This document shows, in pieces, positions 3,524 to 39,497 of a stretch of 64,000 nucleotides of DNA. The stretch is taken from the sequence record LC473039.1; one strand, written 5' to 3'. The translations under genes and the position numbers were made by a program. This stretch comes from Escherichia phage L27. A model generated the notes under the pieces. It ran no database searches and was not told the origin of the DNA. It saw nothing but the letters and a program-made list of their open reading frames with translations. The stretch's first letter is position 1. Each line of letters opens with the position of its first letter.

Positions 3524-4720
3524 ATGAACAAAGTACAGATTATTAAAAAGAATGGCTCACTCGAAGAACCTGATATCAAAAAAGTTTTAGTAGCAGTCAC
3601 AAAGTCAGCTAATAGGGTTGGGTATAAAGAACTCCCACCAGACGTTACCCAAGCTCTTGAGTCAGCATTTATGAGGATTCTGGTAAAGTCCACTAAGCAG
3701 AATAATTTGCTAATTTCTGTAAATGATATTCACAGTATTGTTGAGGGTGCTTTGGCAGAAGTCAATCACGAGATTTATGAGTCTTACTCAACATATAGAA
3801 ATTACCGTAAAGAAGTTGCTCAAAATTGGGATGAACTCTACCAGAAGACCAAAGATACACTCTTCTTAGGTGACAGAGAGAATGCTAACTTTGACAGCAG
3901 TTTAATTTCTACAAAAGGTTCAATTATTCGTGGTTATCTGACTAAAGAAATCTTTAAACAGTACCATTTAACACCAGAGGAACTTGAAGCCATTGAAAAA
4001 GGGTTTATCTATATCCATGATTTAAGAGACCTAATTTTTGGTGGTATCAACTGTTGCCTGTTTGACATTGGTAAAGTCCTGAAAGGTGGCTTTGAAATGT
4101 CTGGCATCGAATATTGTGAACCAAAGTCTGTGCTGTCGGCCTTACAGGTTATTGGTGACGTAGTTCTTTCAGCAACTGCACAGCAATTTGGTGGCTTTAC
4201 TTTAGCAGAGATTGATAAGGTACTTGTACCGTATGCTAAGAAGTCTCTACGCTATCATGCTGAGAAAGCAGCATCTTATGGTATTCCTAAAGAACATTAC
4301 CACAATTATGTCATGGAGCAGCTACAGATTGAACTGACTCAAGGTTTCCAGTCACTTGAAATGAAACTAAATACTGTACCTTGCAGTCGTGGGGATTTTG
4401 CATTCACAACTTTAACATTTGGTTTACTTGACTCAGATATGTCTAATGAAGATAACCGACTACAATACATGATTGCAAGTACTCTCCTAGATGTTCGTAT
4501 GAATGGACAAGGTAAGAGCAAGAAGCCTGTTGTATTCCCTAAACTGGTTTATATTTATGACCAGAAGAGACACGATGAGAATATCTGTCAAGGACACCTG
4601 TACAGTAAAGCCATTGAGTGTTGCTCTAAAGCAATGTATCCAGATTTCTTAAGTGTATCTGGTCATGGTGCTGTAGCAGAAGCTTTTGAGCGTTCTGGCA
4701 AGGTAATCTCGCCGATGGGT
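3524..4720 (+). CDS. nrdD: anaerobic ribonucleotide reductase NrdD, exon 1 (ATP-cone + N-terminal catalytic region; ends ...ISPMG)
   Basis: ATP-cone-like N-terminus; ORF terminates at TAA immediately after ...SPMG, while conserved continuation CRAFLSP is found in frame at 5037. Confidence 0.8.
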
Positions 4721-5036
4721 TAACAGGCTCTATAGCTCATCTAAAACGTGCCTAAACAGGGAAACTCTACAGATGTAGACAATCCTGTGCTAAATGATGT
4801 ACGATGTAAGAAACTATACAACATAGGAGTCTTACATGCCAAATAACTTCGAATACGAGTTTGAATACATCTAAATGCCGAACGACTAACCGTGATGAAT
4901 GTAGCGGTGTAGGGTCAAGCGACTCGAAATGGTACGCTACTTAGAAATAAGTAGAAGATATAGTCTGGACTTACTGGCGACAGTAAGCAGCTTGAATAAA
5001 GCGGGGTAAGCTTAGCGAACTTACCTGAACAACAAG
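4721..5036 (+). other. group I self-splicing intron interrupting nrdD (ORF-less, 316 nt)
   Basis: Exon 1 ends in T (4720), intron ends in G (5036); joining gives ...ISPMG|CRAFLSPYHNEYGEEFYVGRANIG...; internal CAGGGAAACTCTACAGATG resembles the conserved group I P3/P4 core; no ORF inside. Confidence 0.75.
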
Positions 5037-35082: not shown

Positions 35083-36498
35083 ATGAGCGAGTTATTTAAA
35101 CATGCGCACCTTCATGCAGGTCGAACTGAAAATGGTGCTGTAAACCATACTTCATCAATGTCTGCTCTGGTAGACTTCTACAAAGCCGCTGGCTCAAGCC
35201 GTAGCAATGTAGAAATCTTACCAGACCTGTTCTACAAAGCTTTGCGTGAGGATGTTGATGTTGCAGTTCGTATTTTACTGCATATGCGAGATGTACGAGA
35301 AGGTATGGGTGAGCGTAAAGCTTTCCGAACTGTTTTACTTCAAGCGATTGAAGATAAGGTTTTAGAACCTACACAGGTTCTTCGCATTATGGATAAGATT
35401 GCAGAACTTGGTCGTTTTGATGACTTCAAAATCTTCGTAGGTACTCGTTTCGAGACAGATGCCTTCAAACATTTAGAAGCAGCATTACTAGACCCTGCAA
35501 CAGCAGGTTTAGCAGCTAAGTGGTTGCCACGAGTAAAACCACGCCACAAACAGTTTGTAAAACGTTTCTGTAAGTTTGCAAACTTAAGCGAGAAGGAGTA
35601 TCGCACACTGCTATCTGCACTGTCTGATACGGTTGAGCAAAAAATCTCTGCTAATGAGTTTGGTAAGATTGACTACAGCAAGATTCCTTCACTCGCTGCT
35701 GCACGTTACCAAAAGCTCTTTAACCGTAAAGATGGAGAGCGTTACAAAGCTTACATCGAATCATTATCAAAGGGTGAGGTTAAGATTAATGCTGGTGCTG
35801 TTTACCCATATGATGTGATTAAATCTATTAAGTATGGTAATGCAGATGTTGCTAATGAGCAGTGGAAAGCACTTCCAAACTGGATGGCAGAAGGTGAAAA
35901 CATCTTGTGTATGACTGATGTTTCAAGCTCAATGTCTTGGGTGAATCTTGGTTCAATCACTGCCCTTGATATTGGTGTATCACTTGCCTTGTATGTAGCA
36001 GAACGCAATACAGGTTGCTTTAAAGATGAGTTAATGGTCTATTCAACAAACCCTCATTTCATTGAACTGAGTGGTGATTTACGAAACCGTCATCGTCAGG
36101 TAATGCGTCATGTTGAATATGGTTCAACTAACTTACAAGCAGCTTTTGACCGTATTCTTGAGGTAGGTAAGAGAAACAACTTGACTCAGAAAGATATGCC
36201 AAGTAAGCTTATTATCTTCTCTGATATGGAGTTTAATCAGGTTGATGGTGCAAATGGTCGTACAAACTTTGAAGCAATTCAGAGTAAGTACAAAAAAGCT
36301 GGATACGAAATGCCACAACTAGTATTCTGGTACTTAGCAAACCGTAATGGTACTTGCGAAGTATCTGTTAAGGATAATGGTGTAGCAATGGTATCAGGGT
36401 TCTCTCCAGCCACTTTAAAAGCTCTGCTTGGTGGTGAGAAGTTTGACCCAATCAGTGTAATGCTCAAAGCGGTAATGATTGACCGTTATATCTGGTAA
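35083..36498 (+). CDS. von Willebrand factor A (vWA) domain protein with MIDAS motif; N-terminal domain of unknown family
   Basis: MIDAS D-x-S-x-S in MTDVSSSMSW, downstream TNLQAAFD and IIFSDMEFN; 471 aa. Confidence 0.55.
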   Translation: MSELFKHAHLHAGRTENGAVNHTSSMSALVDFYKAAGSSRSNVEILPDLFYKALREDVDVAVRILLHMRDVREGMGERKAFRTVLLQAIEDKVLEPTQVLRIMDKIAELGRFDDFKIFVGTRFETDAFKHLEAALLDPATAGLAAKWLPRVKPRHKQFVKRFCKFANLSEKEYRTLLSALSDTVEQKISANEFGKIDYSKIPSLAAARYQKLFNRKDGERYKAYIESLSKGEVKINAGAVYPYDVIKSIKYGNADVANEQWKALPNWMAEGENILCMTDVSSSMSWVNLGSITALDIGVSLALYVAERNTGCFKDELMVYSTNPHFIELSGDLRNRHRQVMRHVEYGSTNLQAAFDRILEVGKRNNLTQKDMPSKLIIFSDMEFNQVDGANGRTNFEAIQSKYKKAGYEMPQLVFWYLANRNGTCEVSVKDNGVAMVSGFSPATLKALLGGEKFDPISVMLKAVMIDRYIW

Positions 36499-36663: not shown

Positions 36664-36740
36664 CTCTGTTTAGCTCAGCTTGGTAGAGCGTTCCGTTTGG
36701 GGCGGTAAGGCCGGAGGTTCAAGTCCTCCAACAGAGACCA
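36664..36740 (+). tRNA. tRNA-Pro (anticodon TGG)
   Basis: Manual fold: acceptor CTCTGTT/AACAGAG, D-arm GCTC/GAGC, T-arm GGAGG-TTCAAGT-CCTCC, CCA encoded. Confidence 0.75.
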
Positions 36741-37163: not shown

Positions 37164-37251
37164 GTGTCGTTATCCCGTAGATGGTAGCGGTGGGGACTGT
37201 AAATCCCTTGTCATTGAGACTCGGTAGGTTCGACTCCTACACGGCACACCA
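37164..37251 (+). tRNA. tRNA-Tyr (anticodon GTA), long variable arm
   Basis: Acceptor GTGTCGT/ACGGCAC, anticodon loop CTGTAAA, T-arm GTAGG-TTCGACT-CCTAC, CCA. Confidence 0.75.
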
Positions 37252-37273
37252 ACACTTAGCGAGATACTTAGTT

Positions 37274-37702
37274 ATGAGAGATGAAGTATACAAATCACAA
37301 CTTGGTATGAGTTTGGGAACTGCACAAAACAGACTAGTAAAAGATTTGCTATTCGATTTTATATGTAAGACAAATCAAAATAGATGTTTTCAGTGCGGAA
37401 AAGAAATGACTAGGGATGATTTCTCTATCGAGCATAAGATTCCGTGGAGACATAGTGAGAATGCAAAAGAGCTTTTCTTTTCACTAGATAATATTTCTTA
37501 TAGTCATCTTAAATGTAACATGAAAGCAGCAAGACCAGCACAGATAAGTGAAAGAAAACATAAAACAATTAAACACGGAACTGCGTATAGTTATTTTAAA
37601 GGCTGTAGATGCGATGAGTGTAGGTTGGCTAAGAATGCTGAGAGTAGAAGAAACTATAGTCCAGAAAGACGTAGGAAGAAGTATCTAAGAAATGGCACAT
37701 GA
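37274..37702 (+). CDS. HNH homing endonuclease (tRNA-cluster embedded)
   Basis: HNH core SIEHKIPW...SHLKCN; C-terminal YFKGCRCDECR; ORF-track start 37181 overlaps tRNA-Tyr, ATG 37274 used. Confidence 0.7.
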   Translation: MRDEVYKSQLGMSLGTAQNRLVKDLLFDFICKTNQNRCFQCGKEMTRDDFSIEHKIPWRHSENAKELFFSLDNISYSHLKCNMKAARPAQISERKHKTIKHGTAYSYFKGCRCDECRLAKNAESRRNYSPERRRKKYLRNGT

Positions 37703-37781: not shown

Positions 37782-38212
37782 AATTTTGAGAGGGCTATTT
37801 AGCCCCTCCCTTAAAGGGTTCTTACGAGTATCTTTTAAAGGAGCAGAAGACCAAATACAGCAAGAACGTATGAAAATTTCAAGCCAATTTAATTTTGAAA
37901 AATTTAAAACTTGGTCTGGCTCAACAAATTTACAGAAGACCGTTTACAGCAAAACTTAAACAATCTATTTCTCGGTAAAGAAAAGGCGAAGGTTCGATTC
38001 CTTCACTCGGCAGATGTCGAGTTGGTGTAATGGTAGCACTTAAGATGATAAACAACGGTCTGGTAATTATCTTTGTAGATAAGTTATTAAGCTTACCTGT
38101 GAGTATGCGACCACAAAGGGTGAAAGGGTAAATTCTAGATTTAAACCCAACAAGGCACATCGCTACAGACCTTAAGCAAGTCTGGGTAGCTTATCTACAA
38201 AGATAATTTAAT

Positions 38213-38377: not shown

Positions 38378-38872
38378 GTGATACTTATGATTTGTGCCAA
38401 CAAAGATTGCAGAAATGAAGCCGTTAAAGGTGGAAAATTTTGCTCACGCTCTTGTTCTGCAAAAGTGAACAACAAGAAACACCCAAAGAGAAGTCAGGAA
38501 GGCTCTTGCCATTCATGCGGAAAGGTAACGCCAAAAGCGAGAAAATACTGTGACGAATGTATTGCAGGTGGAGTCATGAAAAAACATAAGACCCATCATG
38601 AAAAAAGCAAAGCCAAATCACTGCACGTTAAAAAGTCTCGTGACAGACTGAAGAAGGCTTTAGTTGATTACAAGGGTGGTTGTTGTTCAATTTGTGGTTA
38701 CAATAGGTGCATAAAGGCTCTAGAGTTTCACCACTTAGACCCTAAGACAAAAGACTTCACAGTAAGTAAAAAACACTACTCACTGGCTACAATGCAGTCT
38801 GAAGTTGATAAGTGTGTCTTGCTTTGTGCAAATTGCCACAGAGAAGTACACGAAGGGGTAACAATGCTGTGA
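38378..38872 (+). CDS. HNH homing endonuclease (zinc-binding)
   Basis: Multiple CxxC pairs and HNH motif EFHHLDPKTKD...CANCHREVH; RBS AGGTGA. Confidence 0.7.
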   Translation: MILMICANKDCRNEAVKGGKFCSRSCSAKVNNKKHPKRSQEGSCHSCGKVTPKARKYCDECIAGGVMKKHKTHHEKSKAKSLHVKKSRDRLKKALVDYKGGCCSICGYNRCIKALEFHHLDPKTKDFTVSKKHYSLATMQSEVDKCVLLCANCHREVHEGVTML

Positions 38873-38941
38873 AAGCACATATGGATGTGCATTCGGCTGA
38901 TAACCGAAAGGCAGAAGGTTCAAATCCTTCTCACAGTACCA
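38866..38941 (+). tRNA. tRNA-Ile (anticodon GAT)
   Basis: Start overlaps HNH stop codon; D-arm GCAC/GTGC, anticodon arm TTCGG-CTGATAA-CCGAA, T-arm GAAGG-TTCAAAT-CCTTC, CCA. Confidence 0.75.
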
Positions 38942-38956
38942 ATTTCAATAAAGTTG

Positions 38957-38985
38957 TTGACATTGAGATGTGACTACTTTATAGT
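38957..38985 (+). promoter_or_regulatory. strong sigma70 consensus promoter (TTGACA-N17-TATAGT) inside tRNA cluster
   Basis: GTTGTTGACATTGAGATGTGACTACTTTATAGTAACC; ~200-nt untranslated leader before next tRNA. Confidence 0.6.
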
Positions 38986-39189
38986 AACCTTAGTTTTCGT
39001 TGCGTAGCGTCTATTTTGCAAATTTAAAATAAATGCAAACGACAATGTTTTTCTGGCAGTAGCTTGATAGGCTAAACACCAGTGAGGTCTTCCAATCCCT
39101 CATCAAAGAATTTGGCGTACTCGCCCACGGTATGATTAATAAGGTGGGCATCTTTAAGGGCTTTCTAAGAGAGTCTTTAAAGATAATTA

Positions 39190-39271
39190 CGGGGCGTATC
39201 TCAGCGGTCTTCTAAACCGCCGTTAACCGAGTAAGTGGAGTATGCGGGTTCGAGTCCTGCCGCCTCGACCA
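39190..39271 (+). tRNA. atypical tRNA-like gene (possible tRNA-Arg, anticodon TCT; D-arm not resolvable)
   Basis: Good acceptor CGGGGCG/CGCCTCG, T-arm GCGGG-TTCGAGT-CCTGC and CCA; perfect stem-loop GCGGT-CTTCTAA-ACCGC but spacing non-canonical. Confidence 0.4.
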
Positions 39272-39414: not shown

Positions 39415-39497
39415 ATGGGACGATGTTAAGACTCTAAGGCATGAGCAACGGCTTCCAACACCGTTTCAAAGGGGTTCAACTCCTCCGTCCCATGCCA
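39415..39497 (+). tRNA. tRNA-Trp (anticodon CCA) candidate with enlarged D region
   Basis: Acceptor ATGGGAC/GTCCCAT perfect, anticodon region ACGG-CTTCCAACA-CCGT resembles Trp arm, T-loop TTCAACT, CCA. Confidence 0.5.

Follow-up and report, generated by a model that had tools for sequence, protein, structure and literature searches.

The locus and its promoter

Escherichia phage L27 (sequence record LC473039.1) is a Felix O1-like phage (Felixounavirus), of which we analysed a stretch of 64,000 nucleotides (nt), in the following called the window. Between positions 36664 and 42446 it carries 24 transfer RNA (tRNA) genes on the + strand, with HNH endonuclease open reading frames (ORFs) interspersed. 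Here we are concerned with a gap of 248 nt that follows tRNA-Ile (38866-38941) and precedes an atypical tRNA-like gene with its start at 39190. Within this gap lies a predicted non-coding RNA of about 200 nt that resembles the tag-encoding part of transfer-messenger RNA (tmRNA, encoded by ssrA) and that opens with an arm complementary to the tmRNA of the host. Together with SmpB, tmRNA carries out trans-translation, which is the main ribosome-rescue pathway of bacteria and an antibiotic target.

A first-pass annotation of the window had described a consensus promoter in this gap, followed by about 200 nt with neither ORF nor tRNA but with a hairpin that has a 6-bp stem. It had considered a small non-coding RNA or a processed leader, and had proposed a covariance search against Rfam as a check. 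The tmRNA-like tag frame, the two pseudoknots and the 5' arm antisense to host tmRNA had been overlooked. The features of the region are collected in Table 1.

Table 1. Features of the tmRNA-like RNA and its immediate surroundings (positions in the window)
Feature	Position	Strand	Details
Sigma-70-type promoter	38957-38985	+	TTGACA 38957-38962, 17-nt spacer, TATAGT 38980-38985; predicted start near 38991-38993
5' arm	38991-39034	+	motif UAGUUUUCGU 38991-39000; GCGUCUAUUUU 39007-39017; ends in A/U-rich AUAAAU before the resume codon
tmRNA-like tag frame	39035-39070	+	resume-type GCA 39035-39037; ten codons ANDNVFLAVA 39035-39064; UGA UAG 39065-39070
Helix-5-like hairpin, stop codons in loop	39053-39082	+	outer CUGG 39053-39056/CCAG 39079-39082; inner UAGC 39060-39063/GCUA 39071-39074
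Pseudoknot a	39083-39115	+	stem 1 UGAGG 39083-39087/CCUCA 39098-39102; loop CCAA 39092-39095 pairs with UUGG 39112-39115
Pseudoknot b	39116-39149	+	stem 1 CGUACU 39116-39121/GGUAUG 39129-39134; stem 2 GCCCAC 39123-39128/GUGGGC 39144-39149
Conserved joining loop of pseudoknot b	39135-39143	+	AUUAAUAA(G)
17-bp 3' hairpin closing the RNA	39150-39184	+	AUCUUUAAGGGCUUUCU/AGAGAGUCUUUAAAGAU
Atypical tRNA-like gene	39190-39271	+	Rfam tRNA 31.7 bits, missed by ARAGORN; not counted as part of the element
ORFs overlapping the region	38812-38973; 38885-39007; 39132-39215; 39011-39151	+; +; +; -	27-53 amino acids

The promoter had been annotated correctly to the letter and position. It matches the consensus at 11 of 12 positions and is the best site of the 8 kb scanned. 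Since promoter-like sites in these 8 kb were no more numerous than in shuffled sequences (16 found, 17.4 expected), the match alone proves little, and its credibility comes from conservation. Other Felixounavirus genomes have this promoter as well. Five unrelated lineages besides (swi2; pIS4-A with related contigs; a Jedunavirus; Erwinia phage Hena2; SSU5-like plasmids) carry sigma-70-like promoters that match at 8-10 of 12 positions and end 6-12 nt upstream of the GUUUUCG motif of the 5' arm. From the position of the promoters just before this motif in six lineages, the source phage included, we infer that the antisense arm forms the 5' end of the RNA. In other lineages the motif follows immediately after a repeat stem or terminator. 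No terminator-like site was found between the RNA and the downstream tRNA-like gene, and the 3' end is probably defined by RNase P cleavage at the 5' end of that gene.

Distribution of the RNA family

The region 38800-39700 matches 265 phage records with 80-99% identity. In a sensitive BLAST search with the spacer (595 phage records), the segment 39026-39150 was found to be 71-83% identical in unrelated phage lineages: Kuttervirus (Vi1-like), Jedunavirus, Swiduovirus, the N4-like phages Pollock and St11Ph5, Aeromonas phage pIS4-A and Erwinia Kolesnikvirus. The core is likewise 71-83% identical in P1, lambdoid prophages and SSU5-like phage-plasmids. In the deposited records this stretch hardly ever carries an annotation. 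When a related copy served as query, 757 phage records matched, phage P1 among them. The P1 copy lies in the leader of the C1-controlled ban operon with tRNA-Asn and tRNA-Thr downstream, and its RNA (locus L136, 2405-2690; record positions 68472-68757) starts directly after the terminator-like hairpin of the annotated 'dicF-like region'. P1 thus offers a convenient genetic system for the element.

Among 5426 complete genomes of E. coli, 338 contain the element, and 246 of the 343 places at which it occurs are on plasmids. Both chromosomal copies that we inspected are located in a lambdoid prophage, between the Q antiterminator gene and the holin gene. A copy belonging to the core E. coli genes was considered and rejected, as the element occurs only in prophages and phage-plasmids. 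In total 757 plasmids carry it, mostly non-mobilizable phage-plasmids of about 110 kb (SSU5-like), the Yersinia pestis plasmid pMT included.

On this pattern of conservation, 38991-39189 is predicted to be a discrete non-coding RNA of about 200 nt, one member of a large family in phages of Enterobacterales that has gone unannotated. The interpretation of the first-pass annotation is supported in part: a strong promoter would drive a structured non-coding RNA, as it had considered, and this RNA is conserved as one block.

A tmRNA-like tag reading frame

From the A/U-rich end of the 5' arm onward, the invariant block of the RNA reads AUAAAU GCA AAC GAC AAU GUU UUU CUG GCA GUA GCU UGA UAG, which encodes ANDNVFLAVA followed by two stop codons. 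The counterpart in E. coli ssrA is AAUAGUC GCA AAC GAC GAA AAC UAC GCU UUA GCA GCU UAA UAA, encoding ANDENYALAA. The phage frame has no start codon, and its codons 4-9 differ from the host tag frame. Common to the phage RNA and the host tmRNAs is an AUA at positions -6 to -4, with U at -5 and A at -4 from the resume codon. In E. coli tmRNA these upstream positions are U85 and A86, which set the resume frame.

All 20 distinct tag variants of the family consist of 10 codons followed by UGA, UAA or UAG. They include ANEEMYLAVA, ANDDVVLMAA, ANDTEFLAVA, ANDNTFLAVA, ANDEQFLAVA, ANDDLMLAAA and ANDAQFLAVA; the tag of P1 is ANDDLMMVAA. From pairwise comparison of the variants we counted 922 codon differences in the tag frame, of which 280 (30%) are synonymous and 642 nonsynonymous. 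In the two other frames synonymous differences amount to only 19 of 856 (2%) and 61 of 830 (7%). The tag frame is therefore under protein-coding-like constraint, and we take it as a candidate template for translation. The Rfam models for tmRNA, permuted tmRNA and beta-tmRNA align onto the resume region, the tag and the first pseudoknot, with 16-31 bits at thresholds of 47 or more.

RNA structure

The 198-nt RNA has a predicted folding energy of -58.8 kcal/mol compared to -41.2 ± 4.1 kcal/mol for shuffled sequences (z = -4.3), and it folds more stably than 200 out of 200 shuffles. Covariation was assessed on an alignment of 29 distinct sequences. The layout of the predicted structure (tag template, helix 5, pseudoknot, pseudoknot) is that of tmRNA, and helix 5 as well as both stems of both pseudoknots is supported by compensatory changes.

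In the helix-5-like hairpin 97% and 85% of the alignment cells are paired, and the outer pairing covaries from CUGG/CCAG to CUGA/UCAG. For stem 1 of pseudoknot a five compensated versions exist (UGAGG/CCUCA, CAAGG/CCUUG, CGGGG/CCCCG, UAGGG/CCCUA and CGAGG/CCUCG). Its loop, which reads CCAA, CCAG or CCGA, pairs with a downstream UUGG, CUGG or UCGG; this second helix shows double changes in three of its four pairs, with 96.6% of cells paired. Overall 93.9% of the cells are paired and 10 pairs show double changes, and the observed covariation score was reached by none of 500 shuffles. Pseudoknot a aligns to pseudoknot 2 of the beta-proteobacterial tmRNA model.

Stem 1 of pseudoknot b follows the pattern CG(C/U)ACU/GGU(G/A)UG with 98.9% of cells paired and with changes from C-G to U-A and from C-G to G-C/U-A. 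Its stem 2 occurs in six differing but complementary versions, those of relatives including GCCC/GGGC, GGCGGGAG/CUCCCGUC, GCCCUGA/UCAGGGC and GUCCCG/CGGGGC. This is the hairpin GCCCAC/GTGGGC of the first-pass annotation, whose pairing is exact and backed by covariation; it is, however, the second stem of an H-type pseudoknot rather than a simple hairpin. The 3' hairpin that closes the RNA occupies the position at which relatives carry long 'scaffold' stems with variable inserts; in Felix O1 the insert has about 55 nt.

Absence of a tRNA-like domain

The RNA contains no tRNA-like domain: acceptor stem, T-arm and CCA are all missing, and the RNA begins with the antisense arm just after the promoter. 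ARAGORN reported no tmRNA in the window or in the family loci except for one implausible call in the swi2 locus (L131). In the same run it detected the ssrA gene of E. coli as well as some 25 permuted tmRNAs of other viral contigs. The latter are IMG/VR contigs (L014-L123, retrieved by a 14-mer of the resume region) with complete, circularly permuted two-piece tmRNA genes, whose tags include ANDNFAPSELALAA and ANDERFLMAA. The covariance search against Rfam returned no family match at the gathering or E-value threshold for the RNA in the window or for more than 20 related loci. It gave sub-threshold matches of tmRNA type only, with 16.0 bits for RF00023 and 12.5-31 bits for RF04321, compared to a gathering score of 47 for each. 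Neither ARAGORN nor Rfam detected a tRNA within 38945-39189, as had been annotated.

In the gene at 39190-39271 the acceptor stem has 7 bp and contains G3-U70, the identity pair of alanine; A73, an encoded CCA and a T-arm are present too. In place of a D-arm the gene has 4 nt; its anticodon-like loop reads CUUCUAA (UCU), and the variable region has about 20 nt. Phage REP8 annotates the counterpart as 'tRNA-OTHER', while MET-P1-301 has a normal tRNA-Arg(UCU) there instead. Possibly the gene mimics the tRNA-like domain of tmRNA, or it acts as a decoy or as a mis-sense tRNA.

A second tRNA-like element, reported by neither ARAGORN nor Rfam, lies at 39415-39497. It has the acceptor stem AUGGGAC/GUCCCAU, discriminator G, CCA, a T-arm and a 9-nt anticodon-like loop CUUCCAACA. 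The loop UCUUCCAAUC of the hairpin of the tmRNA-like RNA has the same CUUCCAA core as this anticodon-like loop.

The 5' arm is complementary to host tmRNA

The 5' arm begins with a near-invariant motif: its 8-nt core GUUUUCGU is present in all but four of the 38 family loci, and those four read GUUUUCGC or GUUUUCGG. In local alignments about 40 nt from the motif onward are collinear with the antisense strand of ssrA nt 68-106 across the family. The matching blocks are UAGUUUUCGU, GCGAC, UUUGCGG and UUUUUA. The family target thus comprises about nt 64-107 of tmRNA, i.e. the 3' side of pseudoknot 1, the linker, the resume codon and codons 1-6 of the tag. In the source phage the collinear part of the arm comprises its first ~28 nt (38991 to about 39018), which align to the antisense strand of host tmRNA nt ~76-107; the target here includes the linker, the resume codon and tag codons 1-6. 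For most other members the match extends to tmRNA nt ~56-64, into pseudoknot 1.

Against antisense E. coli ssrA the arm of the source phage obtained a local score of 28, compared to a mean of 14.6 and a maximum of 21 for shuffled arms. The family arms scored 22-36 except for two (20 and 16), with a shuffle mean of about 14.5. For most members the predicted duplex with E. coli tmRNA has an energy of -36 to -42 kcal/mol (z = -3 to -6.5), which none of 100 shuffles equalled. Nearly all duplexes end at ssrA nt 104-108. The arm therefore has extended, position-specific complementarity to host tmRNA beyond what base composition provides, and it may pair with tmRNA in the cell.

The target segment cctcgtaaaaagccgcaaaaaatagtcGCAAACGACGAAAACTAC is nearly invariant in the tmRNAs of more than 50 species, mostly Enterobacterales, that were retrieved via smpB. 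The arms favour tmRNAs of the ANDENYALAA type and pair poorly with the divergent ANDSQYE(S/P)AALAA type. As to co-variation between arm and host, the target is near-invariant in the sampled Enterobacterales, and none of the sampled family members comes from a host with a divergent tmRNA. The arm of pMT fits the E. coli-type tmRNA and not the ANDSQYESAALAA type of some Yersinia, which is neutral given that the tmRNA of Y. pestis itself was not part of the comparison.

Other origins and partners of the arm were considered. The 44 nt upstream of the tag have no sense homology to ssrA (scores of 12-19, close to the shuffle mean), and a derivation of the 5' motif from the D-loop-like GGAUUCGAC of tmRNA was rejected, the sense alignment being at shuffle level. 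Pairing of the arm with the tag region of its own RNA was rejected as well, with scores near background and no co-variation with the variable codons. A complementary partner carrying ACGAAAAC was not found near the element in any phage examined.

Possible function of the RNA

We propose that the RNA pairs with host tmRNA and masks the tag template of the host, for which it may substitute its own; to this proposal we give an even chance. The RNA would be transcribed from the sigma-70 promoter, and during lytic growth its arm would anneal to host tmRNA, burying the resume codon and the tag template of the host in a duplex. Annealing would at the same time tether the resume codon and tag template of the phage to the alanine-charged tRNA-like domain of the host and to SmpB. 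As the 3' end of the arm would leave the duplex beside host pseudoknot 1, the linker and resume codon of the phage would be placed where those of the host emerge. On rescued ribosomes, tagging with the host sequence would then stop, or the phage tag would be read instead ('tag swap').

More specifically, the RNA might be a parasitic tag template acting in trans, which would add tags of the AANDNVFLAVA type and not of the AANDENYALAA type, or a related 'spare part' template. This extension is possible but on balance doubtful. The spare-part variant takes as its model those phage tRNAs that stand in for host tRNAs after cleavage by defence nucleases: since the phage frame differs at codons 4-9, it might escape a nuclease aimed at the host tag template.

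Several points weigh against the proposed pairing and masking. The predicted duplex of the source phage is weaker than those of most relatives (-27.3 kcal/mol, z = -2.5) and was equalled by 2 of 100 shuffles, and the SSU5-like arms are weaker still (z = -1.2 to -1.7). Duplexes of 18-nt seeds with ssrA are no better than shuffles; pairing through a short 5' seed only was therefore rejected, the full arm being significant. Pairing would disrupt pseudoknot 1 of the host tmRNA, and a duplex of about 40 bp beside the decoding site may not allow resumption on the phage frame. The phage tags (FLAVA, YLAVA, VLMAA) still look like degrons of ClpXP, for which the consensus [LFYW][LAR]LAA with FKLVA ranking top has been given (10.1101/2024.01.29.576913), such that the benefit of a tag swap for the phage is in doubt. 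The arm could also have been left behind when a captured segment of ssrA was duplicated in inverted orientation. Finally, the whole case is built from sequence.

Among the alternatives, the one that survives best is a pure antagonist of trans-translation, which would anneal to tmRNA without its own tag frame ever being translated. It might possibly lead to cleavage of tmRNA by RNase III or RNase E, and/or soak up binders of the tag template such as ribosomal protein S1. The antisense complementarity fits an antagonist equally, as does the lack of a tRNA-like domain in cis, and a precedent is the fragment of mycobacteriophage DS6A that consists of the tRNA-like domain only and was proposed to inhibit tmRNA by titrating SmpB (PMC4131195). 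An antagonist, however, leaves unexplained why the tag looks coding, with 10 codons and a stop in every variant and frequent synonymous differences in this frame only. It also leaves unexplained why the resume context AUA(-6 to -4)/GCA and two pseudoknots are kept. We therefore consider it unlikely that the RNA acts in this way alone.

The RNA could also be the coding piece of a two-piece tmRNA of the phage, with the gene at 39190-39271 as the alanine-accepting piece and both joined after processing by RNase P. That gene does have G3-U70, A73 and CCA, and, as in the tRNA-like domain of tmRNA, a D-arm is missing from it. Both appear to be co-transcribed and are adjacent in most Felix O1-like phages, and natural permuted two-piece tmRNAs are common on viral contigs. 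Nevertheless, the complementarity between the two RNAs is at chance level (-46.1 kcal/mol compared to a shuffle mean of -47.5 kcal/mol), and some Felix O1-like phages keep the upstream RNA with an ordinary tRNA-Arg(UCU) in that place. The other lineages examined have no comparable gene near the element, the sole match with G3-U70, A73 and CCA being an ordinary tRNA-Ala. As the antisense arm would in addition have no explanation, we regard a two-piece tmRNA as improbable.

Still less probable is an ordinary leader or spacer of a tRNA precursor, in which the promoter would serve the downstream tRNAs and the ~200 nt would be processing signals or filler; a processed leader had also been considered in the first-pass annotation. 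The RNA does lie inside the cluster of 24 tRNA genes and directly before a tRNA-like gene with no intrinsic terminator in between, and in several relatives tRNA genes follow the array of modules that contains the RNA. The unit is, however, conserved across unrelated phages whether or not a tRNA follows, and it has its own promoter in six lineages. In Pollock no tRNA follows directly; the element there has its own terminator-like GC hairpin and U run instead. Nor would a spacer be expected to covary extensively in two pseudoknots, to contain a coding-like tag frame or to keep its 5' motif near-invariant.

A small protein gene can practically be discounted: the region was not free of ORFs as had been annotated, four short ones overlapping it (Table 1), but of the two inside the conserved RNA neither keeps its start in relatives (in the 27-amino-acid ORF 39132-39215 the start is AUG in the Felix type alone and the encoded sequence is not conserved, and the start of the 46-amino-acid minus-strand ORF 39011-39151 is absent from relatives), a 9-codon AUG frame that overlaps the tag varies from 5 to at least 15 codons and has CUG in place of AUG in SSU5-like copies, and symmetric 2+2 nt indels in stems suit an RNA structure and not a coding sequence.

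If the RNA does mask and replace the host tag template, phages would reprogram or repair ribosome rescue by means of an antisense tether joined to a replacement template, which would constitute a new point of conflict or hijacking between phage and host in translation quality control. The family occurs in model phages (P1, Felix O1, Vi1-like and N4-like), in lambdoid prophages of pathogenic E. coli and on Y. pestis pMT, and the RNA would account for an unannotated gap in hundreds of deposited genomes. It would also provide a natural design for blocking or reprogramming the tagging by tmRNA.

Further features of the locus and of related loci

The tmRNA-like RNA of lambdoid prophages, P1, swi2, St11Ph5 and others lies within arrays of modules (for example L005 3880-4330, L034, L038, L093, L131 1620-1810 and L136 2680-2760). 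These modules are bounded by complementary repeats (CACAAC)AGGUAAGAGCAUU ... AGUGCUCUUUCC(GUUGUG) and contain a variable 'cargo', in some cases with T-arm-like hairpins. They alternate with tRNA-shaped modules of the form UGUGGUG..GCGCAGGCUGAUGCGC..CCGGAG(A/U)UCAGC(G/A)CCGG-CCACCACA. The array modules have no Rfam family match, and tRNA genes are often found downstream. An identical 26-nt cargo, CCCUUAUGGGGCUUGGCUUAAAUGCA, is present in Felix O1 (L003 1957-1982) and in a lambdoid prophage of E. coli O26 (L005 3892-3917), where it sits inside two unrelated long stems. The shared cargo indicates that small RNA modules are exchanged between unrelated phages.

Two long inverted repeats lie immediately upstream of tRNA genes in the cluster of the source phage: 38065-38086/38187-38208 (22 nt, 95% complementary) before tRNA-Lys (38213), and 39763-39789/39828-39854 (27 nt, 85% complementary) before tRNA-Leu (39855). 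Both are similar to the 17-bp hairpin (39150-39184) ahead of the tRNA-like gene and may serve in processing or stability. An orphan T-arm-like sequence is located at 37980-38004. ORFs 37181-37702 and 38378-38872 are inserted between tRNA genes. The Felix O1 homologue of the second is annotated as HNH endonuclease, and this ORF runs into the 5' end of tRNA-Ile and terminates there. Felix-like phages differ in the length of this region mostly because such insertions are present in some and absent from others.

ORF 35083-36498, which directly precedes the tRNA cluster, encodes a protein of 471 amino acids with the Pfam domains DUF2828 and DUF7788 and a DxSxS (MIDAS-like) motif; its counterpart in phage REP8 is annotated as 'RNA-binding protein'. 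The protein may be Ro60/TROVE-like, which would suggest binding of odd tRNA-like RNAs. An assignment of the cluster to a Y-RNA/Ro system was rejected: no Y RNA family is among the matches listed for the cluster, the protein matches only DUF2828/DUF7788, and the loci of many lineages have no such gene adjacent. Elsewhere in the window a group I catalytic intron was identified at 4673-4987 (Rfam RF00028, 53.3 bits at a gathering score of 50).

Comparison with known systems

A full-text literature search yielded no description of the phage RNA or of its tag peptides, although a prior description is possible as coverage was incomplete, and it yielded no natural RNA that targets tmRNA. A survey of 543 RefSeq viruses published in 2014 reported phage ssrA in mycobacteriophages and in Bacillus phage G only (PMC4131195). 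As the survey reported no ssrA in other phages, the present family had evidently not been recognised in it. Given the permuted genes on viral contigs mentioned above, phage- or prophage-borne tmRNAs seem to be much commoner than that survey indicated. The phage-encoded partial tmRNA of DS6A, for which interference with trans-translation of the host was proposed (Hudson, Lau & Williams 2014, PMC4131195), resembles the RNA described here in being incomplete. DS6A, however, keeps the tRNA-like domain and therefore the opposite half of the molecule (PMC4131195).

To the one-piece tmRNA of Enterobacterales (SsrA, RF00023) the RNA is similar in several respects. These are the A/U-rich upstream sequence with U(-5)/A(-4) and the resume codons GCA AAC GA(C/U), the 10-codon AND...A tag that ends in small or hydrophobic residues, and the stop codons in the loop of a helix-5-like hairpin followed by consecutive H-type pseudoknots. 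It differs in that acceptor stem, T-arm, CCA, helix 2 and pseudoknot 1 are absent, and in that two pseudoknots follow the tag compared to three in E. coli tmRNA. Furthermore, its 5' end is antisense and not homologous to tmRNA.

With the coding pieces of two-piece permuted tmRNAs (RF04321, RF01849, RF01850) it would share the principle of a separate tag-template RNA that relies on pairing with the RNA carrying the aminoacylated end, and its best sub-threshold Rfam matches are to the permuted models (31 bits for the St11Ph5 copy). Genuine coding pieces, however, have a 5' acceptor strand and a co-encoded acceptor piece, neither of which is encoded here. The only detectable complementarity of the phage RNA is to the complete tmRNA of the host, in the tag-template region.

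Synthetic oligonucleotides directed against this region of tmRNA block trans-translation. Like these and like trans-acting antisense RNAs, the phage RNA has a 5'-terminal stretch complementary to a specific cellular RNA. Publications on assays of in-vitro translation and of trans-translation mention synthetic reagents against tmRNA (PMC3384345, PMC7038980), a precedent for the proposed masking and for a pure antagonist alike. A mechanism that combines such a tether with a template was not found described in the literature covered, and the RNA appears to be an undescribed variant related to tmRNA. Ordinary antisense regulators have neither a substitute tag template nor pseudoknots, whereas the phage RNA carries both.

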